64,000 nucleotides of DNA from Bacteroidetes bacterium UBA7692 (GTDB lineage Bacteria > Bacteroidota > Bacteroidia > Chitinophagales > LD1). Below the pieces are notes generated by a model. It searched no databases. It worked only from the letters and a program-made list of their open reading frames with translations, and was not told the origin of the DNA. Of this stretch, positions 8,238-56,816 are shown piece after piece. The stretch spans positions 856 to 64,855 of the forward strand of contig DLGO01000001.1 in NCBI GenBank assembly GCA_002482725.1, in the 5' to 3' direction. The position numbers and the translations under genes are program-made. The stretch's first letter is position 1, and each line of letters begins with the position of its first letter.

Positions 8238-8239
8238 GA

Positions 8240-9672: not shown

Positions 9673-9726
9673 ATTCTATCTTCGTTTAGTGCAACTTACA
9701 CTATAAAACTGCGTTGTACAAATGGC

Positions 9727-9855
9727 ATGAAAAAATCTGCACAATATCTGTTCGTCTTATTGCTAGTGAGCTCGTTTAGCGCTGCTTTTTTGAGTGGCTG
9801 TAAGTCCAGCAAGTGCGACTGCCCGCATGGAACTTTTAATGGCAGGAGACATTAA
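9727..9855 (+). CDS. small Cys/His-rich lipoprotein (42 aa)
   Basis: An internal ATG of the listed 9658..9855 ORF gives MKKSAQYLFVLLLVSSFSAAFLSGC|KSSKCDCPHGTFNGRRH. This is a classic signal peptide plus lipobox (LSGC). It ends 33 nt upstream of ferritin. Confidence 0.5.
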   Translation: MKKSAQYLFVLLLVSSFSAAFLSGCKSSKCDCPHGTFNGRRH

Positions 9856-9888
9856 TTTATTCTTATATAAAAACTAAAAAACAAGAAA

Positions 9889-10422: not shown

Positions 10423-10449
10423 AAATATACCAAACTGAGCTAAAATAGA

Positions 10450-10481
10450 AAAGGGTCGATGTTTCACAACATTGACCCTTT
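10450..10481. terminator. hairpin between convergent ferritin and RRM-protein genes, a likely bidirectional terminator
   Basis: AAAGGGTCGATGTT (10450-10463), loop TCAC, AACATTGACCCTTT (10468-10481). There is one G.U pair and it is followed by TCTT. Confidence 0.65.
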
Positions 10482-10502
10482 CTTATAAAAGTTAAGAAAC
10501 TC

Positions 10503-10871
10503 TTAGTAGCGATCTCCGCCACCACGATTTCCACCTCCGTATCCACCGCCACGGTTGCCACCGCCACCGCCGTATCCGCCACTACCTCCACCGCTTGGAC
10601 GGTTGAAAGTTTTGCGAGGAGCACTTTCGTCGCGCTCGCGAGCTTCTTTTACAGACAATGGACGTTCGCCCACTTCTTTGCCGTTCAAAGCGTCGATAGC
10701 ACTTTGTGCTTCGCTTGAGTTTGGCATTTCTACAAATCCGAAACCACGGCTACGGCCTGTTTCACGATCTGTAACAATTTTTACTGAGCTAACTTCACCG
10801 TAACGCTCAAATTCTGAGCGAAGTTGGTCTTCCGTAGCGCGGAAGTGAATGTTACTTACGTACAAATTCAT
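10503..10871 (-). CDS. RNA-binding protein with an RRM domain and a Gly/Arg-rich tail
   Basis: 122 aa. RNP2 is LYVSNI and RNP1 is RGFGFVEM. The C-terminus is GGGSGGYGGGGGNRGGGYGGGNRGGGDRY. Confidence 0.9.
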   Translation of the reverse strand: MNLYVSNIHFRATEDQLRSEFERYGEVSSVKIVTDRETGRSRGFGFVEMPNSSEAQSAIDALNGKEVGERPLSVKEARERDESAPRKTFNRPSGGGSGGYGGGGGNRGGGYGGGNRGGGDRY

Positions 10872-11135
10872 TGGAAAAAATTAAAAATGACTAAATCTGC
10901 CCTGAAATACTACTAATGATATAAAGAAAAACTTTGACAGATTACTTTCTAACTAATAGGCTGCATTTCACGATGCGAATGTGAATATAACTTAATTAAT
11001 TTTAATTCCAAGCCCTGCGCAAAATTATTTTAAGGTTTTTTTATCATTGATTATCAAAGGGTTCACGTAAAATGCAGGTAGTCAACACTTCACAATGCAA
11101 CCAGAGGTGAATTTTTATCAACCAAATTTCCACAA

Positions 11136-13073
11136 TTATTCGAAAAACCTCCAGCGAACCCCTCCTTTGAAGGCAATATCCTGTGCCGGATACAGGTAAG
11201 AAGTGTAGTATCCTTTAGGTCCGAATTTAGAGCTTATATTCTCTACTTTCAGGAATATTCTTGCCCATTTTATTTTTAGGTTAATGAAGGCATCCAACAC
11301 CGGATAATACTTGAATTGCTGCTCATTTTGCACATAAAACTGACCCGTCAACGGGAAATAGGCATTGGAACTGAACTCGGTGTTGTACCTCAGGTCAAAT
11401 CCGAATCCCATCCATAGTGCTTTCTTAAAATACCTGCGCTCATAGAATATACTATGCCTTGTTACTACCATTGGTAGCCTTATTACATCTTTGTTTGAAG
11501 CCACCTGAAACCAGACATCATTGTCTACGTGTAACCCTTTCCACGCAAACCTGTTGCCGGCATGTACTACCAGTATGCTACTGTTGCGACCATCATAAGC
11601 CGGTGTATTTGGCGCAGAAAAATAGAAGTAGTTGTTGGAAAGCGTATAATTGGCATCGGCAAAGATTCCGTACTTATTATTTACATACTTACCTCCAAAA
11701 CTCAGCAGTGATTGCTTAGGGAAGTTAAGCTCCCATTGCTCGCTATGCGACTTGAATTGCTGGTTGATAAGCGGAGCCTCAGTAAGCGAATAATTGGCAT
11801 GCGCAGTAAGCACACCAAATTTTCCAAAGTCGTAACCAAACCAGCCGCCCAGGTGCAGGTCGTTTCTGTTATAGCCGCTCAGGTAGTATTTGAACTCGCC
11901 GCAATAGATAATGGGCAGGCGCACATTGGTATTGTTCCTGATCTCGCCACGTACATAGATATTGGCAAAGTTAGATTTCAGGTTATTCTGCGACATCATC
12001 ACATAGTCAATTCCCAGTGCCGCATTGGCCACCATGTTGATGTATTTTACCGTAGTGTCATCTTTCAGGAATTGACCGTGAAAGTCAAATTGCGCTTCAT
12101 TACCTATTTTGATATAGCTCAGTGAATTCTTCAATGAATCTGATGGTATGTAGAAGCTCTCATAGTAGGTGCTGTCGGGCTTGGCATCTGTATAGTTGTA
12201 TTTGTTCCTGCCGATATTAAGCCTGTAGCCTGCACTGAAGGTTGGTATAGTCTTTTTATAAGTGATGGTATCTGCCACTATCGTTTTCTTCTTGCCCAGG
12301 TTATACCGGGTATATAGGTACCAGTCAATGCTTTGGTACTCATTTACGGCACTTGTCAATCTGGTTTGCGCTAGGTTTTTGGTAAATAGGGTGGTGTCGC
12401 TGCCAAAGATATCCTCTGTCAATCCTCCGTTTTCCTTTGCCCGGAAGTTGTTGAAGAGCATGGTCGATTTAATCTCTACCACATTGCTCTTTGGGGCAAA
12501 AATACCATACAGCGAAAAGCCATTATCATTGGTGCTTTGGTTGGTATAGGTGCCTTTGGAGTTGATACGCGTAAAGTCGACTCCATAGAACAGCCGCTGC
12601 TTGCTTTGCGCGGCAAACTTGCCATTGAACATCTGCTCTGTTCCCTGCCCTATTACATAGCTCAGTTGGGTATATGGCCTTTGCGCTCTGTATACCCTGA
12701 TACTATCCAGGATGAACTTGTAGGCGTTGAACTGATTAAATCCAACATTAAAATCCTTGTCTGCAAATGGTGTGAATATCAGCGGAAAGGCTGCAGTTCC
12801 GGCATTCCCCAGATTGTAATATTCGGGGCCCGGCCTTTGCATTTGGTTGTACTCCTCCAGATTTACTATAGAGGTATCTATCTGGTAGTACTGCTCAGGC
12901 TTTCCCCAATAGTGCCATGTATCATTGACAGAATTCTTAACCTTGGTTGAATCATTTTTAGCCGCAAAAGCGCTTCCCCAGCACAATACCATAAACAGCA
13001 ATACCACTAGTCCGGGATATATCGAACTGCTGTTGTTGTTATTATCACATGGTATTGCCTTATGCATCTTCAA
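11136..13073 (-). CDS. putative outer-membrane porin / beta-barrel protein
   Basis: 645 aa with a signal peptide. It is rich in alternating aromatic and polar beta-strand patterns and ends in aromatic residues (...GGVRWRFFE), typical of Bacteroidota 'putative porin' family proteins. Confidence 0.65.
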   Translation of the reverse strand: MKMHKAIPCDNNNNSSSIYPGLVVLLFMVLCWGSAFAAKNDSTKVKNSVNDTWHYWGKPEQYYQIDTSIVNLEEYNQMQRPGPEYYNLGNAGTAAFPLIFTPFADKDFNVGFNQFNAYKFILDSIRVYRAQRPYTQLSYVIGQGTEQMFNGKFAAQSKQRLFYGVDFTRINSKGTYTNQSTNDNGFSLYGIFAPKSNVVEIKSTMLFNNFRAKENGGLTEDIFGSDTTLFTKNLAQTRLTSAVNEYQSIDWYLYTRYNLGKKKTIVADTITYKKTIPTFSAGYRLNIGRNKYNYTDAKPDSTYYESFYIPSDSLKNSLSYIKIGNEAQFDFHGQFLKDDTTVKYINMVANAALGIDYVMMSQNNLKSNFANIYVRGEIRNNTNVRLPIIYCGEFKYYLSGYNRNDLHLGGWFGYDFGKFGVLTAHANYSLTEAPLINQQFKSHSEQWELNFPKQSLLSFGGKYVNNKYGIFADANYTLSNNYFYFSAPNTPAYDGRNSSILVVHAGNRFAWKGLHVDNDVWFQVASNKDVIRLPMVVTRHSIFYERRYFKKALWMGFGFDLRYNTEFSSNAYFPLTGQFYVQNEQQFKYYPVLDAFINLKIKWARIFLKVENISSKFGPKGYYTSYLYPAQDIAFKGGVRWRFFE

Positions 13074-13074
13074 T

Positions 13075-13899
13075 TTACAGGCTTGCCAGTAGTTCTATGA
13101 TAAGCCTTGTAAGCTTTGGCTCGGCTTCTTTAGCTTTTTGTAAAACGAACTCATGGCTTACTTCATCTGCTTTTTCAAATGGATAGCCCATGTCGCTGAT
13201 TACAGATACCGCAAATACCTCCAGCCCGCAGTGCCTTGCGACTACCACCTCAGGTGTAGTGCTCATGCCCACTGCATCACCGCCAAGCAGGTGAAACATC
13301 CTGTACTCTGCCGGGGTTTCAAATGTTGGTCCCTGCACACCTACATATACACCTGCATGGCAAGTGGTATTGTGCTCCAGGGCTATATCCATTCCACGCC
13401 TTACCAGTTCGGGATTATAGGCGTTGTTCATATTAGGGAATCTTGGTCCTAGTTGCTCTTCGTTTTTGCCGCGTAGCGGATGGTCGGGTTGCAGGTAGAT
13501 ATGGTCGCGGATGATCATCAGGTCCCCTACTTCATAGTCTTCATTCATACCACCCGATGCGTTGGATATGAAAAGGTGGGTAATGCCCAGGGCTTTCATA
13601 ACACGGATAGGGAAAGTAACCTCCTGCATAGAGTACCCCTCGTAGTAGTGGAAGCGGCCGCTCATAGCTACTACCTGCTTGCCACCAAGTTCGCCAAATA
13701 CCAGTGAGCCTCCATGACCCTGTACTGTAGATACAGGAAAGTTGGGTATTTCGCTGTATGGTAGTTGAACGTGTATGTCTATTTCACGTGTCAGGTTTCC
13801 CAGGCCGGAGCCCAGAATAACACCGTATTTATACTCCTTTGTTATCCTTTTTTTTATGAAGGAAGCCGTCGCTTCTATTCTTTCTATCAGATTTTCCAT
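13075..13899 (-). CDS. purine nucleoside phosphorylase (trimeric PNP-I family)
   Basis: 274 aa. GSGLG, QGHGGSLVFG, RFHYYEG, GPRFPNM, GPTFETPAE and VGMSTTPE are PNP-I motifs. Confidence 0.9.
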   Translation of the reverse strand: MENLIERIEATASFIKKRITKEYKYGVILGSGLGNLTREIDIHVQLPYSEIPNFPVSTVQGHGGSLVFGELGGKQVVAMSGRFHYYEGYSMQEVTFPIRVMKALGITHLFISNASGGMNEDYEVGDLMIIRDHIYLQPDHPLRGKNEEQLGPRFPNMNNAYNPELVRRGMDIALEHNTTCHAGVYVGVQGPTFETPAEYRMFHLLGGDAVGMSTTPEVVVARHCGLEVFAVSVISDMGYPFEKADEVSHEFVLQKAKEAEPKLTRLIIELLASL

Positions 13900-13969
13900 T
13901 TGCTTTATTTCAATTCTTTATTGGCCTATCACATGCCAAAGATGCGTTTTGTACTGCTTCTATCAAAAA

Positions 13970-15004
13970 TCATTTTACGGATTGGATAAACGACCGTACA
14001 TCATTCAGTATCTGTTCCTCCCCACCAAACAGAAAGGAATAATGAACGGCTTGTACAAATACAGGGATATTATTTACCGCAAACCATTCTTTGTGAGGGA
14101 GCAATCGCATGGCATCTTTTTCGGTGGTCATTACTGCTACCTCTCCACCCATATTGCTTATGGTATCGCGTATGTTCTCCAGGTCGTATTGGTCAAATAC
14201 ATGGTGGTCTTTGTATTCCTTCATCACTACCTTGCCAAATCGTTGTGTTACATAATCCCTGAGCGGGGCAGGATTGGCTATGCCACACAGCAGCAATATG
14301 CTGCTGCCTTGTTTTAGCACTGCGTTATCACTGAATGTATATACGTTGCCATAGTTAAGGGATGCGAAATAGACATGCTGATACGGCTTGGGGTTTATCT
14401 CTTTTAGCAGCGCATCTCTTTGCTCTTTACTCAGGTTTTCAGGGCATTTGCTCACTACTATTATGTCTGCCCGGTGGTAATTTTCCTTAGCTTCCCTTAG
14501 CCAGCCGCGGGGGAAAATATGGTCCCTTGTAAATAGCCTGCTATAGTCAGTCACCAATATCTGCAGGCCGGGTTTTACAGCCCTATGCTGAAAAACATCG
14601 TCCATCAATATGGCATCAATGGGCTGGTCTATCTGCAGCAACCTTGGTATACCTAATACCCTGTCTTCTGATACGCTTACTGCCACTTCCGGAAACTTCA
14701 GCTTAAACAATAATGGCTCATCGCCTGCTTCCATAGCGGTGCTTGTGCGTTCCACCATTCTGAAGCCATGTGTTTTCCTGCCATAGCCGCGGCTCATTGT
14801 GGCCATGGCAAATTCCTGCCTTAGCTTAAAGAGCAGGAACTCTATCAGTGGCGATTTGCCGGTGCCGCCCATGCTTAGGTTGCCAATACCAATTACGGGC
14901 ACATTGAACTTTACAGACTTCAGCCAGCGCTTGTCATATAACATATTACGGAGGCCAGTTATGGCTCCGTAGATATAAGAAAGGGGTATTAAAAGTAAAG
15001 ACAT
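13970..15004 (-). CDS. lpxK: tetraacyldisaccharide 4'-kinase
   Basis: 344 aa. P-loop GNLSMGGTGKSP, RGYGRK and LMDDVFQH match LpxK. Confidence 0.9.
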   Translation of the reverse strand: MSLLLIPLSYIYGAITGLRNMLYDKRWLKSVKFNVPVIGIGNLSMGGTGKSPLIEFLLFKLRQEFAMATMSRGYGRKTHGFRMVERTSTAMEAGDEPLLFKLKFPEVAVSVSEDRVLGIPRLLQIDQPIDAILMDDVFQHRAVKPGLQILVTDYSRLFTRDHIFPRGWLREAKENYHRADIIVVSKCPENLSKEQRDALLKEINPKPYQHVYFASLNYGNVYTFSDNAVLKQGSSILLLCGIANPAPLRDYVTQRFGKVVMKEYKDHHVFDQYDLENIRDTISNMGGEVAVMTTEKDAMRLLPHKEWFAVNNIPVFVQAVHYSFLFGGEEQILNDVRSFIQSVK

Positions 15005-15014
15005 GGCTTGGGTG

Positions 15015-16046
15015 CTAGTATAGGTTTACCTCTGGTTCTATGGTTATGTTGAATTTTTCGCGCACGCTTTGCTGTATGGCCAAAGCAAGGTTGTATATCT
15101 CTTTGCCCGATGCGCCGCCATAGTTTACCAGCACCAATGCCTGTGAGGCATGTGAGCCTGTATTGCCTACGCGCTTGCCTTTCCAGCCACATTGTTCTAT
15201 CAGCCAGCCCGCGGGCACTTTGGTTTCAGTATCATTGGCAATGTAGCCTGGCATTAATGGATAGTATGCCTTTGTGTCTTGATACTGTTTTGTCGGTATC
15301 ACAGGATTCTTGAAGAAGCTCCCTGCATTGCCCAATACTTTAGGGTCCGGCAATTTAGAAGAGCGTATCCGTATCACTGCATCGCTTATGGCTTTCAGCG
15401 TGGGTTCAAATACCTTCATCTCTGCCAGTTGGGCTTCTATGTCGCCATAGCTCCTGTTGAAGTTATAATGCGGGTTCAGGTTCAGATCGTGTAGTCTGAA
15501 TGTAACACTGGTTATCACATACTTATTCTTCAGCTCTCGCTTGAATACGCTCTCCCTGTATCCGAAATGGCACTCTTCTTTGGCAAAGGTCCTGATATGG
15601 CCTGTCTTGATATCCATAGCCTCCAGCGACAGGAATACATCTTTTATTTCTACGCCATAGGCGCCTATGTTCTGCATGGGTGCGGCACCCACACAGCCGG
15701 GTATCAGCGACAGGTTTTCTATGCCGCCATAATTCTTGGCTATGCAGTATAGCACAAACTCGTGCCAGTTTTCACCGGCATTGGCTTTCACATCTACATG
15801 GTGGTGCAGCCTGTTTACTACTTCTATTCCCTTTATGGCGTTGCGCAATACCAACCCCTCAAAGTCTTTTGTAAAAAGCATATTGCTGCCTCCGCCCAGT
15901 ATCAGGATGTTTTCTGCAAGCAGTCCGTGCTTTACCAGCAATTCCTGTAGTTGTTGCACATCTGTTGCTTCGGCAAAGCTGCTTGCCCGTGCCTGCAGCC
16001 CGAAGGTGTTATATGGCTGTAGTTCCTTATTCTGCTGAATATCCAT
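15015..16046 (-). CDS. murB: UDP-N-acetylenolpyruvoylglucosamine reductase
   Basis: 343 aa. FAD-binding LGGGSNMLF, GIENLSLIPG, GAAPMQNIGAYG and GNAGSFFKNP match MurB. Confidence 0.9.
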   Translation of the reverse strand: MDIQQNKELQPYNTFGLQARASSFAEATDVQQLQELLVKHGLLAENILILGGGSNMLFTKDFEGLVLRNAIKGIEVVNRLHHHVDVKANAGENWHEFVLYCIAKNYGGIENLSLIPGCVGAAPMQNIGAYGVEIKDVFLSLEAMDIKTGHIRTFAKEECHFGYRESVFKRELKNKYVITSVTFRLHDLNLNPHYNFNRSYGDIEAQLAEMKVFEPTLKAISDAVIRIRSSKLPDPKVLGNAGSFFKNPVIPTKQYQDTKAYYPLMPGYIANDTETKVPAGWLIEQCGWKGKRVGNTGSHASQALVLVNYGGASGKEIYNLALAIQQSVREKFNITIEPEVNLY

Positions 16047-16069
16047 TGGCCCTTATTCTTCCGTTCTGC

Positions 16070-17626
16070 TTATTTCTTGCTCAGTTTTACTACCGGCACT
16101 ATCATCTCTTCCAGCGATATACCTCCATGTTGAAAGGTATTCCTGAAAAAGCTTACAAAGTGATTGTAGTTGTTCGGGTATATCAGGAATTTATCTTCCT
16201 TGGCAAATATGTAAGAAGAGGTCAATGAAGTCTTAGGCAGCATGATCTCTTCAGGATTTTTTACCGCATACACATCCTTCTCCTCAAAGTTCAGGTTCCT
16301 GCCTGTTTTGTAGCGGATGTTGCTGGTAGTTTGCCTGTCACCTATGCACTTGCTCGGGTCTTGTACGCGCACGGTGCCGTGGTCGGTCGTTATCAGCAGG
16401 TTAATATCTTTTTCTGCCAGTTTTTTCAGTGCGTTGTGCAGCGGGGAGTGCTCAAACCAGCTGGCTGCTATGGAGCGGTATGCCGCTTCGTCGCTTGCCA
16501 GTTCTTTCAGCACCTCCATTTCTGTGCGGGCGTGGCTCAGCATATCTACAAAGTTGTAGACTATGGCTGTTAGCTTATTGTTCAGGCTGTTCAGTATGTT
16601 GTTTTCCAGGGCCTCCGCATCGCGGTGGTTGGTTATTTTTATGTATTGGTGCTTTATGCTGTCGCGGAAGTTCCTGCCCAGTAGGTCGGTAAGAAATTCG
16701 CCCTCGTGCATGTTCTTCCCTTCCTCATCATCATCATATATCCATTTGTCGTTGAATTTCTTTTGGATCTCCAATGGCATCATACCGGCAAATATGGCAT
16801 TGCGCGAGTATTGGGTTACCGTCGGCAAAATGGCATAAAAAGTTTCCTCCTCGTCTATCCTGAAAAGGTTGGACACCATGCCTTGAATCGCTTTCCACTG
16901 GTCGTAGCGTAGGTTATCTATCAATAGCAAAACTGTCGGCTTGTCCTGTTTCAGCAGGTCAAACAACTTTGTTTTCAATAGTGTATGGCTCATAACCGGA
17001 GCATCAGGTCCCGGCTCTTTTTTCAACCAGTCTTTGTAGTTCTTTATGATGAACTTGTTAAACTCCCTGTTGGCTTCCTGCTTTTGGGCATCAAACACGG
17101 TTTTCATCTGCTCCGCATTAGATGCGTCCAGTTCCATCTCCCAGTATACCAGCTTTTTGTACAGCTCTGCCCAGTCTTTGTAGTCCAGCCTGTCCTGCAT
17201 GCGCATAAATAGGCTCTGGAACTCTTTCTGGTAGTTCGACGATGTTTTTTCTGTTACCAGCCTGTCATTGTCTATTATCTTTTTCAGGGTAGATAGCAGC
17301 TGCTGAGGCTTTACCGGTTTTATCAGGTAGTCCGATATCTGTGAGCCTATGGCATCTTCCATCAGGTTCTCCTCCTCGTTCTTAGTTATCATTACGCAAG
17401 GCAGACGGCTGTTCTTCTCCTTTATGCGCATCAGCGTTTCCAGTCCGGTCAGCCCGGGCATGCTTTCGTCCAGGAACACCACATCTATTTGTTCGGTATC
17501 TACCTTGTCTATGGCATCCTTACCATTGGTTACAGGTATTACGTTGTAGCCTTTGTCTTTCAGGTATAGTATCAGTGGCTTCAAAAGATCTATCTCATCA
17601 TCTGCCCATAGGATATTTATGCTCAT
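16070..17626 (-). CDS. porX: PorX-type response regulator (receiver domain fused to a PglZ/alkaline-phosphatase-superfamily domain)
   Basis: 518 aa. The N-terminal CheY-like receiver has ILWADDE, phospho-acceptor VVFLDESMPG and LIKP. The rest is PglZ-like (IDNLRYDQW, PTVTQYSRNAIFAG, NFVDMLSH, TTDHG). This architecture is characteristic of Bacteroidota PorX. Confidence 0.8.
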   Translation of the reverse strand: MSINILWADDEIDLLKPLILYLKDKGYNVIPVTNGKDAIDKVDTEQIDVVFLDESMPGLTGLETLMRIKEKNSRLPCVMITKNEEENLMEDAIGSQISDYLIKPVKPQQLLSTLKKIIDNDRLVTEKTSSNYQKEFQSLFMRMQDRLDYKDWAELYKKLVYWEMELDASNAEQMKTVFDAQKQEANREFNKFIIKNYKDWLKKEPGPDAPVMSHTLLKTKLFDLLKQDKPTVLLLIDNLRYDQWKAIQGMVSNLFRIDEEETFYAILPTVTQYSRNAIFAGMMPLEIQKKFNDKWIYDDDEEGKNMHEGEFLTDLLGRNFRDSIKHQYIKITNHRDAEALENNILNSLNNKLTAIVYNFVDMLSHARTEMEVLKELASDEAAYRSIAASWFEHSPLHNALKKLAEKDINLLITTDHGTVRVQDPSKCIGDRQTTSNIRYKTGRNLNFEEKDVYAVKNPEEIMLPKTSLTSSYIFAKEDKFLIYPNNYNHFVSFFRNTFQHGGISLEEMIVPVVKLSKK

Positions 17627-17765
17627 TGCTTGTTTTTTAGCTGTTAAGTTTCGGTACTGCTAATAAGGTAAAATAGAAGCAAATATTGTCTGCTGTTAAC
17701 AAATACTTACTAAGACCTTCGCGGTAGTGTAGTCTTAATCTGTTCACCAAACGGGCCAGTAGCCT

Positions 17766-18893
17766 TTAACCTATTGCCTCATCCAGGTTTGGCATGCCAA
17801 ACCTGTTCAGTGTGTTTATATGCGAGCGCACCGCCTGTAAAAAGGTTTTGTTCTCCATATACGGCACTCCGTATTCCGCTGCCGTTGCCTTTACTATTTC
17901 CGATATGGCAGGGTAGTGTACGTGGCATATTTTAGGGAACAGGTGATGCTCTACCTGATAGTTAAGCCCGCCTACATACCAGGTTACAAACTGATCGTCT
18001 TTAGAGAAGTTGACCGTTGTATTCATTTGGTGCACCGCCCAGCTGTTTTCTATATTGCCCGAAACAGGGCATGGCAGCGGGTGCGTGGTGCCTTCTACAG
18101 TGTGCGCCAATTGAAATACTATCGTCAGTACAAATCCGGCAATCATGTGCATGAGCATAAACCCGGCCAGCAAATGCCAGAAAGGCACTCCGAAAACCAG
18201 CGTAGGTATTGCCAGCATGGCTATTACATATACTACTTTGCTTACTACTATTTTCAGCAGTATTATCCTGCTTTTCTTTTCAGATTCTTTATTTACCCCA
18301 TTGGCAGTGTATCGTGCAAACTGGAAGAAGTCCTTTGCCAGCACCCAATAGATGGTCAGCAGGCTGTAGAGAAAAAAGGCATAGTAGCTTTGGTACCTGT
18401 GCACCGGCTTTACTTCGTTGTGCGGCGACATCCTGAGTGCCAGTTTGTCTGCTATATCCTCGTCCATGCCCACTACATTGGTATATGTATGGTGCAGCAG
18501 GTTGTGCTGTAGCTTCCAGTTAAATACCGATCCGCCCACCAGGTTCAGGGTGTGGCCCATCCAGTAGTTTACACTTTGGCTGGTAGAGTATGCTCCGTGG
18601 TTGGCATCATGCATTATGCTCATGCCTATTCCTGCCAGGCAAAAGCCCATGATGCTCCAAAGAGCAAGGCTTATGGGTAATGAGGGCTTGAAAATAAGGA
18701 TAAGGATAAAGGGAATAAGGTAGCCTGATAGCAACACTATTGTTTTTGCAATCATAGTGCTGTTCGCATGTCGCGAAATGCCATTTGCGGTAAAATATTC
18801 GTTTACCCTTTCTTTCAGTGTGTCGAAAAATAAAGTCTGACCCTTATTTACGAAACGGATTTGTTTTTTTACTTCCATTAATAAGTCGCGCAT
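17766..18893 (-). CDS. membrane fatty-acid (acyl-lipid/acyl-CoA) desaturase
   Basis: 375 aa. Three His boxes (HDANH, HNLLHH, QVEHHLFP) and multiple TM segments. The start could instead be the Met at 18878. Confidence 0.85.
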   Translation of the reverse strand: MRDLLMEVKKQIRFVNKGQTLFFDTLKERVNEYFTANGISRHANSTMIAKTIVLLSGYLIPFILILIFKPSLPISLALWSIMGFCLAGIGMSIMHDANHGAYSTSQSVNYWMGHTLNLVGGSVFNWKLQHNLLHHTYTNVVGMDEDIADKLALRMSPHNEVKPVHRYQSYYAFFLYSLLTIYWVLAKDFFQFARYTANGVNKESEKKSRIILLKIVVSKVVYVIAMLAIPTLVFGVPFWHLLAGFMLMHMIAGFVLTIVFQLAHTVEGTTHPLPCPVSGNIENSWAVHQMNTTVNFSKDDQFVTWYVGGLNYQVEHHLFPKICHVHYPAISEIVKATAAEYGVPYMENKTFLQAVRSHINTLNRFGMPNLDEAIG

Positions 18894-18993
18894 TTCGGTT
18901 GGCGCGTGCTCTAAACGTGAATATAGCTATTATAATATGCGTTCTGATCAAAATGTCGATTCTATGCTCATTTATTAACCTTTGCTTTATATC

Positions 18994-19760
18994 GCTGAGG
19001 GTAAAAATTGATGGTGTTTTCTGATGGTAGCTTTATGGGTGTGCTGGGGGTAAATTGATGGTGTTAAATGAGGGTATTTCTTGAGGGTAAATGATGGGGT
19101 GATTTTGGTTTGTGCTGAGGGTATTTTTATTGTTCATTTATTGCTTCCAGGTGTATCTGTTTAGGGCAGCTTTTGTCTTTAGAAAATTACTTTTTTTTGT
19201 CCGTTTTTTATCCCGGTAATATTCTTCTTAATAAATTGATTATCAGTATATCACTATGCTTTTTGGTCTTTTAGAAGATTATGCATTTTGGGTGATTTCT
19301 GTTTATCTCCAAATGCTTTTTTTGTCCGCTTGTCAAAGAAGGTGTCGCTGAGGGGGTAAAATTGACTTGGAGAGATGTTTTCTGAGGGTTTGTTTATTGT
19401 CCATTTATTGATTTCTGGCTTACCTGTTTAGTGCAACTTTTGTCTTTAGTCATTTACTTTTTTTTGTCCAATTTTTGTCCCGTTAATGCTCTTGTAAAAT
19501 AATTGATTATCAGTATATTAATATGCTTTATTGTCTTTTAGAAGAATACACATTTTGGGTGATTTCTGTTTACTTGCCAATGCCTTTTTTTGTCCGCTTA
19601 TCAAAGAGGGTAACGCTGAGGGTAAAATTTGACTTGTAGAGCTTGTTTTCTGAGGGTGTTTTTTAAGTGTGGCATTGAGGGTCTTTTATGTCTGTAAATA
19701 ATAGTTTTGCTGAGGGTAAAATAGCATGCTGCAAAGAGGGGAAACCTGAGGGTAAAATCA
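18994..19760 (+). repeat. same-orientation array of TGAGGGT(A/T-rich) words in a coding-free island
   Basis: Ten exact TGAGGGT copies start at 18996, 19069, 19082, 19116, 19383, 19617, 19651, 19676, 19711 and 19747. Variants are TGAGGGGGT (19349), TGGGGGT (19045) and TGATGGT (19009, 19022, 19057). All are on the + strand. Confidence 0.85.
19115..19649 (+). repeat. tandem direct duplication, two units of about 267 bp
   Basis: Unit 1 (19115-19381) and unit 2 (19382-19649) align end to end. Both run CTGAGGGT..TTTATTGT.CATTTATTG...CTGTTTAG...CTTTTGTCTTTAG...TTTTTTTTGTCC...AATTGATTATCAGTATAT...TTTTGGGTGATTTCTGTTTA...TTTTTTTGTCCGCTT.TCAAAGA.GGT..CGCTGAGGG. By eye roughly four fifths of positions are identical. 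Confidence 0.9.
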
Positions 19761-20073
19761 TGCTTTTTATTATACGCTAAATACACTTTCATTCCTCAAT
19801 TTTTGATTTTTATCAAAATCGTCACAGTCTTTTATCCTGCCTGTTTTATGTAAAGAACGATTTAGGCAGCCTTGTATATTTTAGAATCAAAAAACCTGCC
19901 AAAGTATACTTCCTACATTGCAAAATTTGAAGAACTGACAGATTGCCATATGCGTGGGTAACAGGTTTTTACAAAACGCAAAATCTTTGCACTTTCCTTA
20001 AGATATGGTAAGAAGATCTGTCAGTAACGTTAAAAGTTTTTTTATTTCCATGATAAATTTCAACTTACAGCGC

Positions 20074-20580
20074 ATGAAACAACAGATACTCCTTCTTTTT
20101 ATTCTTCCGGCATTAATGTTCATCAGTGGTTGCGATAGGAAATCCTGCGACGACGCCCAGTGCAATTACCGTCAGCAATGTATCAGTGGCCAGTGCTACT
20201 GCAACAATGGATATGAAGGTAGTGCCTGCGAAACCGAGGCATACAAGAAATATGTCCGATCTTATCTCGTTTACGAAAACTGTGCACAGTCCACGCCAAC
20301 AGTAGGCCAGTATTCCTCTACTATATACAACGACCCTTCGTATATCAATAAAATTGTGATTACTAACTTTTTAGGGCAGGGGTTTTCTGTTGATGCTTAC
20401 ATCACTACCGATGGAAACAATAAAGGAAATGCAATTGCAATACAAAACCAGAACTTAGGTGGTTTCATAGTAGAAGGATACGGCACATTTGATGAGTACA
20501 ACAAACGCCTTACCATGAATGTAAACTACACCTACAACTTCGAAAGCAAAAGCTGCACGCACACATTCTATCCAAACTAA
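20074..20580 (+). CDS. lipoprotein with an EGF-like Cys-rich module
   Basis: An internal ATG of the listed 20005..20580 ORF gives MKQQILLLFILPALMFISGC (signal peptide plus lipobox). It is followed by CDDAQCNYRQQCISGQCYCNNGYEGSAC, which fits the EGF pattern C-x-C-x5-G-x2-C. Confidence 0.7.
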   Translation: MKQQILLLFILPALMFISGCDRKSCDDAQCNYRQQCISGQCYCNNGYEGSACETEAYKKYVRSYLVYENCAQSTPTVGQYSSTIYNDPSYINKIVITNFLGQGFSVDAYITTDGNNKGNAIAIQNQNLGGFIVEGYGTFDEYNKRLTMNVNYTYNFESKSCTHTFYPN

Positions 20581-20606
20581 TCGGAGAAGCAGGACGGCCG
20601 GATGGT

Positions 20607-20894
20607 CTAGTCCAGGTTTACGTCTATTACACTTTCTACAGGGATAAATACGCCCCCTTTCAGTATTACGTAGCGCTCGGTATATGCCCATACCGTTGTT
20701 TCTACTTGGCGCTGGCCTTCGGTAGTGGCAAAAAATATCTTCACTTTATTATGATACCCATTGCCCAACAGCATAGCGCGGTACAATTTCTTGTCATTGT
20801 TTTTTCGTTGGTCTATGGTTAGGTTATTGCGCTCACTTGCGAAAGAACACGCAGGGATTAACTCTTTGTCTATGCTTAGTGCTGACATTATCAT
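20607..20894 (-). CDS. hypothetical protein
   Basis: 95-aa ORF with protein-like composition, convergent with the lipoprotein gene. I recognise no family. Confidence 0.5.
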   Translation of the reverse strand: MIMSALSIDKELIPACSFASERNNLTIDQRKNNDKKLYRAMLLGNGYHNKVKIFFATTEGQRQVETTVWAYTERYVILKGGVFIPVESVIDVNLD

Positions 20895-21012
20895 AATTAG
20901 TATTTTCGTCTAGTTCATTAACATTTACGCACCTATACTGCAAAAGTTACACAATAGCCGCAGCACTGTAATAGAATTTTAGTTTCATTTGACCTCAGAA
21001 AAACAGACAGTT

Positions 21013-22152
21013 ATGAAATTTGGCACCAAGGCTATACATGCAGGCGCAGAACCGGACCCAAGCACCGGCGCTATAATGACTCCCATATACCAGACCTCTA
21101 CTTATGTGCAGGAGGCTCCCGGCAAAAATAAGGGCTACGGATATGCACGTGGCAAAAATCCGACACGTGCCGCACTCGAAAAAAATATAGCTGCGCTCGA
21201 AGACGGCAAGTATTGCCTTTGCTTCAGTTCTGGCATGGGCTCTATGGATGCGGTAATGAAAATTTTGCGCCCCGGCGATGAGGTGGTTACGGGCGATGAC
21301 CTGTATGGTGGTAGCTACCGTATGTTCACACAGATATTTGCAAACTATGGCATCAGGTTTCACTTTATAGATATGACCAATGTCGCCAATGTGCGCGCTG
21401 CGGTTAATGAAAATACAAAGCTGATATGGGTAGAAACGCCTACAAACCCGACTATGCAGATAGTGGATATAGAAGCCTGCGCAGCTATAGCTAAGGAGAA
21501 AAATATACTGCTTGCCGTAGACAATACATTCGCCTCCCCTTACCTGCAGAATCCGCTTGCACTTGGTGCAGATATAGTCATGCACAGTGTTACCAAATAC
21601 TTGGGCGGCCATAGCGATGTGGTCATGGGTGCTTTGGTTATGAACGATGATGCGCTGTACAGCAAAATCTCCTTTATACATAACTCGTGCGGAGCCACAC
21701 CGGGGCCTATGGACTCATTTCTGGTGATGCGCGGCATCAAAACCCTGCACCTGCGCATGGAGCGCCATTGTTATAATGGGCGCAAAGTTGCAGAGTTCCT
21801 GCGCCACCATCCTGCTCTGGAAAAAGTCTACTGGCCGGGTTTCGAAGACCACCCCAACCACGACATAGCAAAGAAACAAATGCGTGACTTTGGTGGTATG
21901 ATTTCCATAGTGTTAAAGGATAAAAGCATAGAAAACACTTTCCGCATAGCTTCTTCTTTTCATGTATTCTCCCTGGCAGAGTCGCTGGGCGGTGTAGAAA
22001 GCCTTATCAATCATCCTGCTACCATGACACACGCCTCTATACCAAAAGCAGAGCGCGAGCGTGTAGGTGTGGTAGACAATTTATTGCGTCTGAGCGTGGG
22101 TGTAGAAGATGTAGAAGACCTTATTGAGGATTTAAAACAGGCCTTGGGTTAA
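21013..22152 (+). CDS. Cys/Met-metabolism PLP-dependent enzyme (cystathionine gamma-synthase/gamma-lyase/beta-lyase family)
   Basis: The ATG at 21013 (MKFGTKAIHAG...) is more likely than the TTG at 20989. The PLP-Lys context is HSVTKYLGGHSDV and the C-terminus is LRLSVGVEDVEDLIEDL, both typical of the trans-sulfuration family. Confidence 0.9.
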   Translation: MKFGTKAIHAGAEPDPSTGAIMTPIYQTSTYVQEAPGKNKGYGYARGKNPTRAALEKNIAALEDGKYCLCFSSGMGSMDAVMKILRPGDEVVTGDDLYGGSYRMFTQIFANYGIRFHFIDMTNVANVRAAVNENTKLIWVETPTNPTMQIVDIEACAAIAKEKNILLAVDNTFASPYLQNPLALGADIVMHSVTKYLGGHSDVVMGALVMNDDALYSKISFIHNSCGATPGPMDSFLVMRGIKTLHLRMERHCYNGRKVAEFLRHHPALEKVYWPGFEDHPNHDIAKKQMRDFGGMISIVLKDKSIENTFRIASSFHVFSLAESLGGVESLINHPATMTHASIPKAERERVGVVDNLLRLSVGVEDVEDLIEDLKQALG

Positions 22153-22235
22153 TTTTATATACTCAAAAAGCCGATTTTTAGTCACTAACCCTATCTTCGC
22201 GCACGTTTCTATCAATAAAATATCAAAATACTTAT

Positions 22236-23375
22236 ATGCTATTTGACCTTACAGAAGAGCAGTTAATGATTAAGCAGGCAGCTCGCGACTTTGCCCAAAA
22301 CGAATGTAAACCGGGTGTTGTGGAGCGCGACGATCATCAGTCTTACCCTACAGAACTGGTAAAAAGAATGGGTGAGCTGGGCTTCCTGGGTATGATGGTA
22401 GACCCTAAATACGGCGGTGGCGGTATGGATACCCTTAGCTATGTGTTGGCGCTGGAGGAAATTTCTAAAGTAGATAACTCTTGTTCGGTTATCATGAGCG
22501 TAAACAACTCGCTTGTTTGCTGGGGCCTTCAGGAGTTCGGCACCGAGGAGCAAAAGCAAAAATACCTGACACCACTAGCCAAAGGTGAAATCCTGGGCGC
22601 ATTTTGCCTGAGTGAGCCGGAGGCCGGTAGCGATGCTACCTCTCAGCAAACTACTGCAAAGGATATGGGCGACCATTACCTGTTGAACGGTACAAAAAAC
22701 TGGATAACAAACGGTGGCATGGCTACTGTTTACCTGGTTATAGCGCAGACATATCCAGAGAAAGGACACAAAGGCATCAACGTATTGATTGTAGAGCGCG
22801 ACATGCCGGGCTTCGTTATCGGGCGTAAGGAAGATAAGCTGGGTATCCGTTCTTCTGACACGCATACGCTTATGTTTACCGATGTAAAGGTTCCTAAGGA
22901 AAACCGCATAGGCGAAGATGGCTTTGGCTTCAAATTCGCTATGAAAACACTTAGCGGAGGCCGTATTGGTATCGCCGCCCAGGCTTTGGGCATAGGTGCC
23001 GGTGCTTACGAGCTGGCAGTTGACTATTCTAAGCAGCGCAAGGCTTTCAAAACAGAGATCATCAACCACCAGGCTATTGCATTCAAGCTGGCTGATATGG
23101 CTACAGATATTGAGGCTGCCCGTTTGCTGGTGTACAAATCTGCTTCCCTGAAAGACGAAGGCAAAAACTATGACTTGGCAAGCTCTATGGCTAAGCTGTA
23201 TGCTGCCGAAACTGCTATGAAACACACCGTAGAAGCGGTACAGATACATGGTGGCTACGGATTTGTAAAAGAATACCACGTAGAGCGATTGATGCGCGAT
23301 GCAAAGATCACACAGATATACGAGGGCACCAGCGAGGTACAAAAAATCGTTATCTCCCGTTCAGTATTGTCATAA
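22236..23375 (+). CDS. acyl-CoA dehydrogenase (short/medium-chain type)
   Basis: 379 aa. CLSEPEAGSDA, WITNGG, the catalitic-base region IYEGTSEVQ (catalytic base) and QIHGGYGF match ACAD motifs. Confidence 0.9.
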   Translation: MLFDLTEEQLMIKQAARDFAQNECKPGVVERDDHQSYPTELVKRMGELGFLGMMVDPKYGGGGMDTLSYVLALEEISKVDNSCSVIMSVNNSLVCWGLQEFGTEEQKQKYLTPLAKGEILGAFCLSEPEAGSDATSQQTTAKDMGDHYLLNGTKNWITNGGMATVYLVIAQTYPEKGHKGINVLIVERDMPGFVIGRKEDKLGIRSSDTHTLMFTDVKVPKENRIGEDGFGFKFAMKTLSGGRIGIAAQALGIGAGAYELAVDYSKQRKAFKTEIINHQAIAFKLADMATDIEAARLLVYKSASLKDEGKNYDLASSMAKLYAAETAMKHTVEAVQIHGGYGFVKEYHVERLMRDAKITQIYEGTSEVQKIVISRSVLS

Positions 23376-23399
23376 GCTTACAGCTACTTTATATCAAAA

Positions 23400-23430
23400 G
23401 GCCCTCCCCGGAGGGCCTTTTGTGTTTTTG
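23400..23430 (+). terminator. Rho-independent terminator after the acyl-CoA dehydrogenase gene
   Basis: GGCCCTCC (23400-23407), loop CC, GGAGGGCC (23410-23417), followed by TTTTGTGTTTTT. Confidence 0.85.
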
Positions 23431-23508
23431 CCTTGTTAATATTCCCAACTATTAGCGGTTCAGGATGCTGCAAAACGCCACTGATATAAAAAACGCTATT
23501 TTTACACG

Positions 23509-23946
23509 GTGAATAATCAAAATCCTCAGGAACATGCCGGTGAAATGTTCCACGATAGTGCTCTTAGGAAGACTACTCCCTTTCAGCACTTTTCAGTAGC
23601 GCTCATAGCAGGTGTTTTGGGCATGCTTGTAGCTAAGTATTACTTCCGCTCAAATGATGGGGTGGGTTTTATGGGCTGCTTCGGGCTTATGTTTTATGCA
23701 TTGTTCAATCCCTGGTTGTTTATGCTGGCCGCCAATTCATTAAAGTATTTCCTCACTTCACTGTCGTTGTATGTTTTGCTTACACTGTTCATGTTTGGGG
23801 CCATCTACTTTTTTACGGGCGAAAGCATCATGAACAAATGGGACCTGCGCATTATCATCATTTCTGCCACTTTCTTTTATTTCGTGGCGTTTGGCATGAT
23901 GCGCCTTTTAAAACTTATTTTGGATACAGACGACGACAAACTATAG
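23509..23946 (+). CDS. hypothetical membrane protein
   Basis: 145 aa (GTG start as listed; a later Met is possible). It has four predicted hydrophobic helices and lies 9 nt upstream of fur. Confidence 0.55.
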   Translation: MNNQNPQEHAGEMFHDSALRKTTPFQHFSVALIAGVLGMLVAKYYFRSNDGVGFMGCFGLMFYALFNPWLFMLAANSLKYFLTSLSLYVLLTLFMFGAIYFFTGESIMNKWDLRIIIISATFFYFVAFGMMRLLKLILDTDDDKL

Positions 23947-23955
23947 GAGAGCAAT

Positions 23956-24438
23956 ATGGCATCGACAAAAGATACAATACTGGAGATAAGGAATATTTTT
24001 TCGGCCTACCTGGAGCAGAAAGACCTGCGAAAAACCAGTGAGCGCTTTGCCATACTGGAAGAAATATACTCCCGCACCGACCATTTCGATGCAGAGGCAC
24101 TGTATGTAGAGATATTGAAAAAGGGATTCAATGTAAGCCGCGCCACGGTGTACAATACACTGGAGCTATTGGTTAGCTGCGATCTGGTAAAAAAACACCA
24201 GTTTGGTAAAAACCAGGCCCAGTACGAAAAAAGCTATGGCTACAGGCAGCACGACCATATTATATGTGTCGATTGCAAAAAGGTGGTGGAGTTCTGCGAC
24301 CCACGCATCCACCAGATCAAAAGCATGATGGGCGATTTGCTGAATTTTAAGATTACGCACCACTCGCTGAATCTTTATGGCGTTTGTGGCAGTTGCCAGT
24401 TGAAGCGCGACATAGCAACTACGGCTATTGCAAAATAA
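23956..24438 (+). CDS. fur: Fur family transcriptional regulator
   Basis: 160 aa. It has a winged-helix N-terminus (RATVYNTLELL) and metal-site motifs HDHIICVDC and HHSLNLYGVCGSC. Confidence 0.85.
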   Translation: MASTKDTILEIRNIFSAYLEQKDLRKTSERFAILEEIYSRTDHFDAEALYVEILKKGFNVSRATVYNTLELLVSCDLVKKHQFGKNQAQYEKSYGYRQHDHIICVDCKKVVEFCDPRIHQIKSMMGDLLNFKITHHSLNLYGVCGSCQLKRDIATTAIAK

Positions 24439-24573
24439 AAAAGAGGTCGCCCAACCATCTCGGACAACCTCTTCATAAAAAACAAAGCAAAAGTTTTAAT
24501 CGGGAAACTGAGAAAATTTGAACGAAAACAGTTTCCTTTTTATAACAGACCGTTTCAAGTCAAAAACGGTTGC

Positions 24574-25026
24574 TTAGAAGGTAAGACTGGCACCTGCGCC
24601 ATTATCTATCGCACCCAGCTCAAGTCTAAGTTTGTAGTGCGGGTACCTTGTTTTTATATCATGTATGCATTTTACGCCCAGTGTGGTTAGTATGGCAGAT
24701 ACTGCAAGTGAGCCTGCGCCTACGCCTATCAGTATTTTACCGTTCCTGTCCCAACGTTTTGCGTACTGTGCACGTTGTTCTTTGTTAAAGTGAGCCGAGT
24801 AATCCGGTGCTTTATTAGCTTTTACCAAACCTGCAGCAAGGCAGCTTCCACCTACTACACCCAATACGCCACCTTCTATAAGGTATAGCTTGGCGTGCGT
24901 TTGCAATTTATCATAATTGATAAGGCGAACAGATGAAGGAGTTTTGTAACGTGAATCTTCTTGTGTTTGCGATGAAACATTTTTCGCTACAAGGAGTATA
25001 AGAAGAAGAGCAACTATATTTTTCAT
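24574..25026 (-). CDS. hypothetical secreted or membrane protein
   Basis: The start is taken at the Met giving MKNIVALLLILLVAKNVSSQ (signal peptide). It has Gly-rich hydrophobic segments and ends in ...GASLTF. Confidence 0.55.
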   Translation of the reverse strand: MKNIVALLLILLVAKNVSSQTQEDSRYKTPSSVRLINYDKLQTHAKLYLIEGGVLGVVGGSCLAAGLVKANKAPDYSAHFNKEQRAQYAKRWDRNGKILIGVGAGSLAVSAILTTLGVKCIHDIKTRYPHYKLRLELGAIDNGAGASLTF

Positions 25027-25125
25027 ATTACTTACTGTGTTTTGCATACCTGTAAAGTAGTATCGTTAAATGTTTTTGTCAAGCATTTGTGTAACCTTTT
25101 TTATTATTTCGCGTAGGGGTGTTTT

Positions 25126-25575
25126 TTATTCCTTTTGTCGCGAATCGACTGAAATCGTTACAGGGCCATCGTTTACGAGCGCTACAGACATGTCTGCGCC
25201 AAACTCGCCCGTCTGGATTTTTCCGGCAAGCGCTTCCATTTTTAACAAAAACTGTTGGTACAGCGGTATAGCTATATTAGGTTTTGCCGCCTTTATAAAG
25301 GAAGGCCGGTTTCCTTTTTTGGTTGCTGCATACAGCGTAAACTGGCTTACAACCAGTATTTCCCCTTTTATATCCAGTACGCTCAGGTTCATCAGCCCTG
25401 CCTCATCGTTGAATATGCGCATGTTCACCACTTTGGCGGCCATCCATTCTATATCCTCTTGGGTATCCTCTGCTTCAAACCCCACCAGCACCAGCAGCCC
25501 CTGCCCGATAGCGCTCTTCACTACTCCTTCTATAGTTACACTAGCCTCTTTTACCCTTTGTATTATTACGCGCAT
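25126..25575 (-). CDS. dtd: D-aminoacyl-tRNA deacylase
   Basis: 149 aa. MRVIIQRV...SVTIEG and SQFTLYAATKKGNRPSF match Dtd. Confidence 0.9.
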   Translation of the reverse strand: MRVIIQRVKEASVTIEGVVKSAIGQGLLVLVGFEAEDTQEDIEWMAAKVVNMRIFNDEAGLMNLSVLDIKGEILVVSQFTLYAATKKGNRPSFIKAAKPNIAIPLYQQFLLKMEALAGKIQTGEFGADMSVALVNDGPVTISVDSRQKE

Positions 25576-25731
25576 TTCTTTTTGGTTTCCTGATTCAATA
25601 TTAATGTAATCAGTTTGTCTTCCCTATTTGCAACAAACCACACCAAACACCCGTCTGTTGATGGTTAAAAGGGATGCATCTTGATTTTTCCCATAAATTA
25701 TTTACTTTCAGCATCCGAAGATGTTCTGTCC

Positions 25732-46228: not shown

Positions 46229-46267
46229 CCCTTGTCAGTAGCTTACTTTTTGCAATTCCCAACTGTT

Positions 46268-46548
46268 AAAAAATGGCGGTGGTTGGCGGTGGCTGGCGGA
46301 ATTTGCGTTTTTCAGCATGAATTTCGCTTTTTTGCGGCACTTTCAATGCGCTAAACCTTTTGCCCTCAACACTCTTAGCCAAATTTCTGTCGGTAAAAAC
46401 ACGGACAGTTTTTCGGCTTTCTGTCGGTACCATCACCCAAAAAAGTGGCGGTGGTTGGCGGTGAGTGGCGGAAATTACGTTTTTTCAGCCTTTTTGAAAT
46501 TGTTAAAATCTGCGGTACCAAAATTGCGGTATTTCTGACGGTGTTTTA
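46268..46548 (+). repeat. direct repeats and a TG(N)CGGT word array in a coding-free island
   Basis: A ~45-bp direct repeat AAAAAA(T/G)GGCGGTGGTTGGCGGTG(GC/AG)TGGCGGAA(A)TT(TG/A)CGTTTTTCAGC occurs at 46268-46316 and 46439-46489. CTGTCGGTA occurs at 46387 and 46421, CTGCGGTACCA at 46510, TTGCGGTA at 46524, CTGACGGTG at 46536 and an outlier CAGTCGGTAAAT at 46819. Confidence 0.8.
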
Positions 46549-46986
46549 TTCACACACGCCGTCCTGTATTCCCAAATTTTAATTGTACTCCGGCTGTAAA
46601 AAAATCCGTGTGTTTCAGTGAAATCTGAGTAATCTGTGATCCCATTTCAGACAAAAAAAGAACGCTCCGGGTCATCGATCCACGCGCTAATGTAAATGTC
46701 AAGTGCTATTCGACTTTAGCAAAAAAGGCGGCAAAGTTTTTTGCCTGGTCTAACTACATGATTAGCAGGTGCATGTATGTAAATTAAAAAATGTGAATGC
46801 CTGTCTTTTAATGCTCTTCAGTCGGTAAATATTTTTACCTCTGGCACAAATTAGCCTAACTAATGTATCGCGTTTGGTGTTTTGGTTTTTACGAAATAAA
46901 TACGTGTATTCAATAGGCAATGGGAATTCATAATGTCGAATATTGGTTGCTGAACCTTACAATAACATTTTCATCTTTGCGGCCAA

Positions 46987-56809: not shown

Positions 56810-56816
56810 AGAGTTT

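Follow-up and report, generated by a model that had tools for sequence, protein, structure and literature searches.

Why should a single bacterial intergenic spacer carry the same short word, TGAGGGT, over and over on one strand? The question is raised by a spacer of about 1.2 kb between the divergent genes of a fatty-acid desaturase and a lipoprotein in Bacteroidetes bacterium UBA7692 (Bacteroidota; Chitinophagales; LD1), located in a stretch of 64,000 nucleotides of contig DLGO01000001.1 (assembly GCA_002482725.1, positions 856 to 64,855) that is termed the window and in which all coordinates are given unless a contig is named. A preliminary description of the window singled out this spacer, here called the island, as a coding-free region saturated with the word, and offered an operator array, iterons or a sponge-like non-coding RNA as candidate functions. 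The comparisons reported here lead, with moderate confidence, to a more ordinary answer, in which the island would be dispensable, hypervariable, lineage-specific non-coding repeat DNA of the variable-number tandem repeat (VNTR) or minisatellite type that has grown in place; most likely it represents neither a gene nor a structured RNA nor an origin of replication.

Repeat architecture of the island

All ten exact copies of TGAGGGT recorded in the preliminary description are correctly placed, lie on the + strand and span positions 18996–19753. The close variants named with them (TGAGGGGGT at 19349, TGGGGGT at 19045, and TGATGGT at 19009, 19022 and 19057) were likewise confirmed, as was a longer shared word found at 19334, 19602 and 19732, which forms repeat family D3. 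The sole further TGAGGGT in the window is at 59952, and the whole-window count is only mildly unusual (11 observed, 5.2 expected). The clustering is local: the island has 13 copies of GAGGG where the remainder of the window would predict 0.35, the reverse complement CCCTC does not occur there, and a weight matrix built from the sites finds 14 matches in the island, all on the + strand (11.9 per kb), compared with 0.14 per kb on both strands outside it. These counts bear out the earlier statements that the word density is not due to chance and that the orientation is strictly single. The + strand is T/G-rich, as had been noted (A 0.25, C 0.14, G 0.20, T 0.41), and the stretch 19037–19114 (32 G, 2 C) has the highest excess of G over C among all 78-nt stretches of the window. 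Spacing between words is variable (12–13, 24–25 and 34–36 nt) and shows no helical phasing of the sites at 10–11 bp; a phasing peak noted post hoc at 11.7 bp (R 0.81) stems from units of 12/24/35 nt.

Absent from the preliminary description is the way in which the words are organized. The island is built of nested head-to-tail duplications (Table 1), and Tandem Repeats Finder (TRF), applied to the entire window, places its only tandem repeats here. In word cluster 1 (G 36%, C 5%) the ~13-nt units decay, as read from the sequence, to TGATGGT, TGGGGGT and TGGGTGT, the exact word being kept in only four of ~10 units. The larger 267-nt unit is composed of a ~60-nt word module, AAAGAGGGT-N5-CTGAGGGTAAAAT-N21-CTGAGGGT, and a 208-nt segment (50% T) with one-strand words of its own, and self-BLAST aligns its copies at 19062–19395 and 19331–19663 (79% over 340 nt). 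Local duplications of ~35–36 nt are found within cluster 3, at 19700–19760. Unit copies thus lie head to tail in non-coding DNA, as in a VNTR or minisatellite. Such duplication produces a high word count, a single orientation and a strand skew without any need of function, and in the island it accounts for the single orientation and for the greater part of the count.

The region is indeed coding-free, since no open reading frame (ORF) longer than 63 aa lies within the gap and none there is protein-like; a 68-aa + strand ORF (18818–19024) enters it from the desaturase gene. Nor is the island an artefact of assembly, as Logan contigs from two further runs agree with the window at 100% identity across 13.5 kb that include it. 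The accompanying remark that other spacers in the window are mostly short needs one correction, a second long ORF-free spacer at 46 kb (Table 1); the island and the array in this spacer are the window's sole places with at least five copies of a complex 6-mer per 400 bp.

A course of growth in place may be outlined, by replication slippage or by unequal recombination between word copies. A G/T-rich seed of ~13 nt (TGAGGGTAAAWNN) would first have given rise to a degenerate array; a ~60-nt module with its two or three words and a ~208-nt T-rich stretch would next have been duplicated jointly as the 267-nt unit, and smaller duplications of ~36 nt would have come last.

Comparison with related lineages

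A relative for which the whole locus can be compared is L075 (L075/L076), a metagenome contig of the Joint Genome Institute that is syntenic with the window and encodes a desaturase 87% identical in protein. BLAST aligns it to the window in two unbroken segments, 7972–18990 (79%) and 20029–25622 (83%), and the only break in the alignment is the island, where 1038 bp of the window face 596 bp without detectable similarity. Third codon positions are 58% identical between the two, whereas most short spacers in the 8.6–25.6 kb region are 75–93% identical (two, of 23 and 26 bp, are at ~30%), and most intergenic DNA of this region is under purifying selection. Set against these values, an unalignable island argues that its interior is free of such constraint. 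Tandem copies that are only 17–21% diverged indicate, furthermore, that they arose after the split from L075, which contains no TGAGGGT at all. The L075 spacer has a 17-nt inverted repeat (GAAATTGAGGCGACAGA, positions 9583–9599 and 9802–9818 of the contig, 94% complementary, arms 202 nt apart) and a GC-rich hairpin (TTGAGGGGCCGGGTCGCCTCAA, 9753–9785), an architecture unlike the purely direct repeats of the window.

Homology to L075 ends at 18990, five bases ahead of the first word. The desaturase-proximal block that stops there, presumed to be promoter and leader, is conserved well over the level of third codon positions (~80% against 58%) and includes an invariant 25-nt stretch (18963–18987). 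On the other side, inspection of the lipoprotein-proximal block suggests that it too holds a promoter: TAAATTTC, 14 nt ahead of the lipoprotein ATG, agrees with the Bacteroidota -7 box TAnnTTTG at 7 of 8 positions. The same box has one match within the island (19702), and no pattern was seen. The segment 18991–19992 is hypervariable and lies between two conserved blocks that are presumably promoter-proximal. Any effect of the island on the two neighbouring genes would probably be indirect; it is located upstream of both presumed core promoters and sets them ~1 kb apart.

In a sister lineage, L184, the lipoprotein is 99% identical, and from 19993 to the right the DNA matches the window at 95.6% identity. 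To the left of this position similarity falls to ~60% for ~110 bp and then ceases, divergence leaping from ~4% to ~40% at 19993; the last ~110 bp of the island before the boundary have only patchy ~60% homology to L184 and L075, as in CAAAAAnCCTGCCAA. In L184 the replacement covers no less than the 420 bp of the island nearest the lipoprotein gene, where the word is absent; the contig ends within its own, different array. Related strains lacking the island, which the preliminary description had named as telling against a regulatory or RNA role, have therefore been found in part, the island being absent in L075 and replaced over its proximal 420 bp in L184. Lack of conservation and change faster than that of the flanks, both expected of a VNTR-type locus, are seen in the same two comparisons.

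What L184 carries in place of the island's right part are two ~170-bp units of a different repeat, whose 45-nt head consists of (TGGCGGTGnn)x3 followed by AAATTGCGTTTTT. This repeat is homologous to positions 46277–46513 of the window (72% over 242 nt, 97% in the head), within the second long spacer. There, two direct-repeat units of ~172 bp, headed by the same (TGGCGGTGnn)x3-AAATTGCGTTTTT, are found on the + strand only, and words of the form TTTCTG(TC/AC)GGT at 46385, 46419 and 46533 resemble the island's TTTCTGAGGGT. A search of this spacer with Rfam gave no match. At the corresponding site the relative L195 has only a 78-bp spacer with an ordinary intrinsic terminator. The presence of the TGGCGG module in L184 and at 46 kb of the window, against 78 bp in L195, indicates that long G-rich arrays come and go in the spacers of this lineage. 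The desaturase–lipoprotein spacer is occupied by three unrelated sequences in three related lineages, and all three arrays seen precede a gene by a few hundred bp and have their G-rich strand in the sense orientation of that gene.

Arrays of the same 10-nt period, with three to eight or more tandem copies of TGGCGGTGnn, also occur in IMG/VR viral contigs (L185 878–913, L186 2646–2681, L188 908–943). Seven viral contigs match, against ~0.1 expected by a rough estimate; the surroundings look non-coding in L185, L186 and L188, and in L187 and L190 the arrays are at a contig end. Elsewhere, the alignment of the window to L195 breaks at 48024–49362 and 56809–58086, and the genes at 48038–49381 (447 aa, no Pfam match) and 56817–57986 (389 aa), which have no aligned counterpart in L195, look like gene-level insertions or deletions.

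Table 1. Features of the desaturase–lipoprotein locus and of the second long spacer, in window coordinates
Feature	Position	Strand	Basis or remarks
Fatty-acid desaturase gene, left flank	17766..18878	-	Pfam FA_desaturase, E 1.4e-38
Conserved desaturase-proximal block, presumed promoter and leader	18879..18990	-	~80% identity to L075
Word cluster 1, degenerate array of ~13-nt units (TGAGGGTAAAWNN)	18991..19125	+	TRF period 23, 2.9 copies, 66% matches; repeat family D2
Tandem unit of 267-268 nt, 2.1-2.25 copies, 79-83% identical	19062..19663	+	TRF score 765; repeat family D1 (209 nt, 83%)
T-rich segment S1 (50% T), own one-strand words TTTTGTC(C/T), no TGAGGGT	19126..19333	+	Composition, k-mer counts, alignment to S2
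Word cluster 2, AAAGAAGGT-N5-CTGAGGGGGTAAAAT-N19-CTGAGGGT	19334..19392	+	Repeat finder, alignments
T-rich segment S2, paralogue of S1 (83% identical)	19393..19600	+	Repeat finder, alignment to S1
Word cluster 3, five exact TGAGGGT and two GAGGG variants	19601..19760	+	Word counts, repeat finder, alignment
Non-repeated right part of variable segment	19761..19992	+	Alignments to L184 and L075
Conserved lipoprotein-proximal block, presumed promoter	19993..20064	+	95.6% identity to L184 from 19993; L075 from ~20008
Lipoprotein gene, right flank	20065..20580	+	Signal peptide MKQQILLLFILPALMFISGC with lipobox Cys; weak EGF-like matches
Second long ORF-free spacer, 753 bp	46233..46985		Between class-II tRNA synthetase (GlyRS-like) and EamA transporter genes

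Observations that weigh against dispensable repeat DNA

Several observations stand against the view that the island is dispensable repeat DNA. Bacterial genomes usually delete useless DNA, and this island has lasted until its tandem copies diverged by 17–21%; two independent read sets give it in identical form. Among the words, the core gCTGAGGGTAA varies less than the linkers, whose sequences and lengths both differ, although the use of the word as an alignment anchor biases this comparison. A VNTR is marked above all by copy numbers that differ among strains; the sole conspecific sequences here, L192 and L193, are 100% identical. The unalignable L075 spacer contains TTTCTGAGGAT twice and also CTGAGGATAAA, in the same orientation as the window words, its four copies of TGAGGA compare with 0.03 expected, and repeated island words are shared with it in excess of dinucleotide-preserving shuffles (P 0.002 for 9-mers, 0.002 for 10-mers and 0.03 for 11-mers). 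Since neutral divergence between the two is near saturation, retention of a word by descent alone is unlikely, so that it may have been maintained or may have been re-amplified from a shared seed. These hints suggest that the word itself may be maintained.

Alternative explanations

The foremost alternative, itself rather unlikely, builds on these hints and takes the ~11-nt (TTT)CTGAGGRT(AAA) as the asymmetric site of a putative DNA-binding protein, for example a response regulator of the direct-repeat type. The island would then be a multi-site landing pad or titration array modulating one or both of the divergent promoters, and duplication would merely have multiplied its sites. Such a pad would be in keeping with 14 sites on one strand at ~80-fold local enrichment, with a core more uniform than its variably spaced linkers, with words left intact in unit copies that have otherwise diverged, with related words of the same orientation in the L075 spacer, and with a position upstream of two conserved promoter blocks. 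However, a core regulatory array should persist, and L184 differs over the proximal 420 bp, including the cluster 3 site, despite its 95.6%-identical flanks, while L075 is devoid of TGAGGGT. Fourteen sites over 760 bp are also far above typical bacterial operators, helical phasing is lacking, and the survival of a 7-mer between ~83%-identical copies, expected about one time in four by chance, is weak evidence of selection. Neither do the known regulators nearby provide a candidate. The gene of a PorX-like response regulator lies two genes to the left, yet PorX footprints from P. gingivalis (PMC8050853) are unlike the word, and the 13–14 of 19 positions at which the S segments agree with a Fur box are equalled at 33 places in the window and are not meaningful. 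The operator array of the preliminary description is thus weakened by the loss or replacement of the island in L075 and L184, even as the dense one-strand words in coding-free DNA from which it was proposed stand.

Searches further afield did not recover the array. Among 74 more distant desaturase loci (800 kb) there is no such cluster and no conserved long spacer, most of them having an upstream gap of less than 400 bp, and a literature search for the word returned only primers and unrelated sequences. A metagenome scan for a word pair gave 106 matches (L077–L182), none of them related: most are an 18-nt eukaryote-like satellite, GGGTAAAATGCAGACTGA, and two other single matches that were read are coding. 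The satellite (e.g. L083, L121, L143) is abundant in the samples Ga0126338, Ga0126339, Ga0126343 and Ga0099808, is probably eukaryotic, and has the string TGAGGGTAAAAT in common with the island words by coincidence. A viral scan for the same word pair gave one match, inside a 1095-aa ORF.

It is quite improbable that the island, like the TGGCGG-type array, was inserted as a non-autonomous repeat element, either as a copy of a dispersed family moving between spacers by some route of transposition or recombination, or through horizontal replacement of the whole spacer. Two close lineages do carry the TGGCGG-type module at differing loci, the window at 46.3 kb and L184 ahead of its lipoprotein gene, and the L195 site corresponding to 46.3 kb lacks it; the island has sharp boundaries, at 18990 and at 19993–20029, and the leap in divergence at 19993 indicates allelic replacement rather than local decay. 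Yet neither the rest of the window nor any fetched locus contains another copy, even a partial one, of the TGAGGGT island, whereas dispersed elements such as miniature inverted-repeat transposable elements, repetitive extragenic palindromes or BOX-like repeats occupy several loci. At the two boundaries, 18990 and 19993, reading of the sequence revealed neither terminal inverted repeats nor a target-site duplication; such inverted repeats as the island has are short and scattered, unlike the palindromes or terminal repeats of a dispersed element. No transposase or integrase gene lies nearby, BLAST of the island against plasmids and phages gave no match, and the nested duplication inside the island shows that much of its length, at the least, originated locally. 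In a bolder and equally improbable version, the TGAGGGT and (TGGCGGTGnn)x3 arrays might both belong to an undescribed class of G-rich direct-repeat modules that are portable and are exchanged between spacers and strains; acting as multi-site protein-binding pads or as G-rich elements of the non-template strand that promote local recombination (R-loop or G-quadruplex type), they would rewire the regulation of downstream genes.

A role at the RNA level is decidedly doubtful. The - strand might serve as a desaturase leader that loads Rho, with ACCCUCA about every 13 nt, or the transcript might be a UGAGGGU/ACCCUCA sponge. All words do lie on one strand, and the - strand of cluster 1 (18991–19130, 49 C and 7 G in 140 nt) is C-rich, G-poor and unstructured over at least ~80 nt, as a Rho utilization (rut) site would be. 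The ~13-nt unit also matches the length of RNA bound per Rho subunit. Folding of the - strand is much worse than that of shuffled sequences (z +4.96), although this is expected of a few direct-repeat words without their complements, and the + strand folds no better than its shuffles (z +1.1). In the L075 spacer, however, the strand skew is reversed, the desaturase-sense strand having G above C, which argues against a conserved rut role, and the conserved promoter-like blocks adjoining each gene probably place the island upstream of both transcription starts.

The proposal of a sponge-like or other non-coding RNA finds as little structural backing. Rfam yields no match at gathering score in the window and only chance-level ones (E 0.5–7) in 18700–20300; searches of the island for tRNA, tmRNA and terminators gave nothing. 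S1 and S2 form only weak hairpins that one copy does not share with the other, no stable or conserved structure was found, and the island lacks what defines a protein-sponge RNA, namely its own promoter and terminator and a motif displayed in hairpin loops. A ToxI-like array of a type III toxin–antitoxin system was considered on account of the 34–36-nt spacings and rejected: such arrays consist of near-identical tandem repeats of ~36 nt, but the intervening sequence here is not repeated, and the next gene downstream codes for a secreted lipoprotein (EGF-like matches) and not for a ToxN-like endoribonuclease. Rejected as well were a CRISPR array, which would have identical repeats of 23–50 nt and unique spacers of similar length (the core is only ~11 nt, its spacing is irregular and what lies between the cores is itself repeated), small ORFs behind the Shine–Dalgarno-like GAGG (only 6–22 codons, without consistency) and a canonical G-quadruplex (the GGG runs, 8–30 nt apart, are too distant from one another).

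A replication origin, iteron array or centromere-like site of the chromosome or of an integrated plasmid is barely credible, for although one-orientation direct repeats beside AT-rich DNA between divergent genes recall such sites, and the word's reverse complement TTACCCTCA is two mismatches from a DnaA box, the reading is effectively refuted by the absence from the island of any DnaA box with at most one mismatch (their window-wide count being at chance level), by a GC skew that follows gene orientation and has no turning point, by the lack of rep, par or dnaA genes among flanks of syntenic chromosomal genes, and by the want of conservation in relatives and of plasmid or phage similarity, which also disposes of the iterons of the preliminary description.

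Comparison with known repeat systems

Intergenic loci of the VNTR or minisatellite type include the mycobacterial interspersed repetitive unit (MIRU)-VNTR loci of Mycobacterium tuberculosis and the variable boxB repeats of pneumococcal BOX elements. Like these, the island is non-coding and intergenic, consists of decaying head-to-tail units, differs between relatives and has no mobility genes. It differs in that its units are nested (13, ~60 and 267 nt) and old (17–21% diverged), with the TGAGGGT type seen at a single locus, and in being without stem-loops or small ORFs. The heptamers of the short tandemly repeated repetitive (STRR) sequences of heterocystous cyanobacteria are contiguous and dispersed genome-wide; the island shares with them a skewed 7-nt word, a single orientation and an intergenic position, but its words, set 12–36 nt apart within larger units, are restricted to a single spacer of the 64 kb.

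Whole intergenic regions are reportedly replaced between bacterial strains in a process that Oren and colleagues are said to have described in PNAS in 2014 as 'horizontal regulatory switching'. The sharply bounded spacer segment replaced in L184, with its leap in divergence at the boundary, resembles this process, although the swapped DNA lies upstream of the presumed core promoter blocks and consists of repeat arrays, not of an alternative promoter. With plasmid iterons, parC of R1, sopC of F and datA of E. coli the island has in common many direct repeats of one orientation within a few hundred bp; unlike these replication, centromere and titration arrays it has irregular spacing and is accompanied by none of their rep, par or dnaA genes, DnaA boxes or conservation. 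Similarly, many one-strand copies of a short motif are also a feature of the sponge RNAs CsrB/RsmZ and CrcZ, but in the island the motif is not placed in hairpin loops, and promoter, terminator, Rfam match and conservation are lacking.

Flanking genes and further observations

For the desaturase, the start MEVKKQI at 18878 (370 aa) is favoured over one at 18893 by comparison with relatives; the L075 homologue P0001 (369 aa, 87% identical) aligns from residue 6. The lipoprotein more likely starts at 20065, just ahead of its signal peptide and lipobox, and the 191-aa ORF from 20005 given by one public annotation is probably too long. Its homologues are P0121 (99%) and P0122 (77%), and its match to Pfam EGF_TEN (E 1e-5) lies under the curated cutoff. 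To the left, beyond the desaturase gene, are those of the PorX-like response regulator, MurB and LpxK; to the right, beyond the lipoprotein gene, follow a Cys/Met pyridoxal-phosphate (PLP) enzyme, an acyl-CoA dehydrogenase and Fur. The best matches of the desaturase are from Pontibacter (~65%), and those of the EamA protein from metagenome-assembled genomes of Chitinophagales (~67–69%).

Outside this locus, the gene of an RRM_1 RNA-binding protein (10503–11135, - strand) has 89% third-position identity to L075, against a neighbourhood average of 58%, and its upstream spacer (264 bp) is 93% identical. The leader folds with a minimum free energy z of +0.48 and has no Rfam match. These values indicate that the RRM_1 mRNA and its leader are under constraint at the nucleotide level.

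Implications

If the ordinary reading of the island as repeat DNA grown in place is true, the locus would be a clean case of a bacterial spacer ballooning to 1 kb by nested duplication. It would show that a dense motif on one strand need not be a regulatory code, and that motif statistics should be freed of the history of duplication before any function is deduced from them. Three unrelated sequences in one spacer, together with a G-rich module found at differing loci, indicate that turnover of the non-coding DNA preceding genes is unusually active in this little-studied group of Bacteroidota. Such turnover could be one origin of regulatory differences affecting a membrane-lipid desaturase and a surface lipoprotein.

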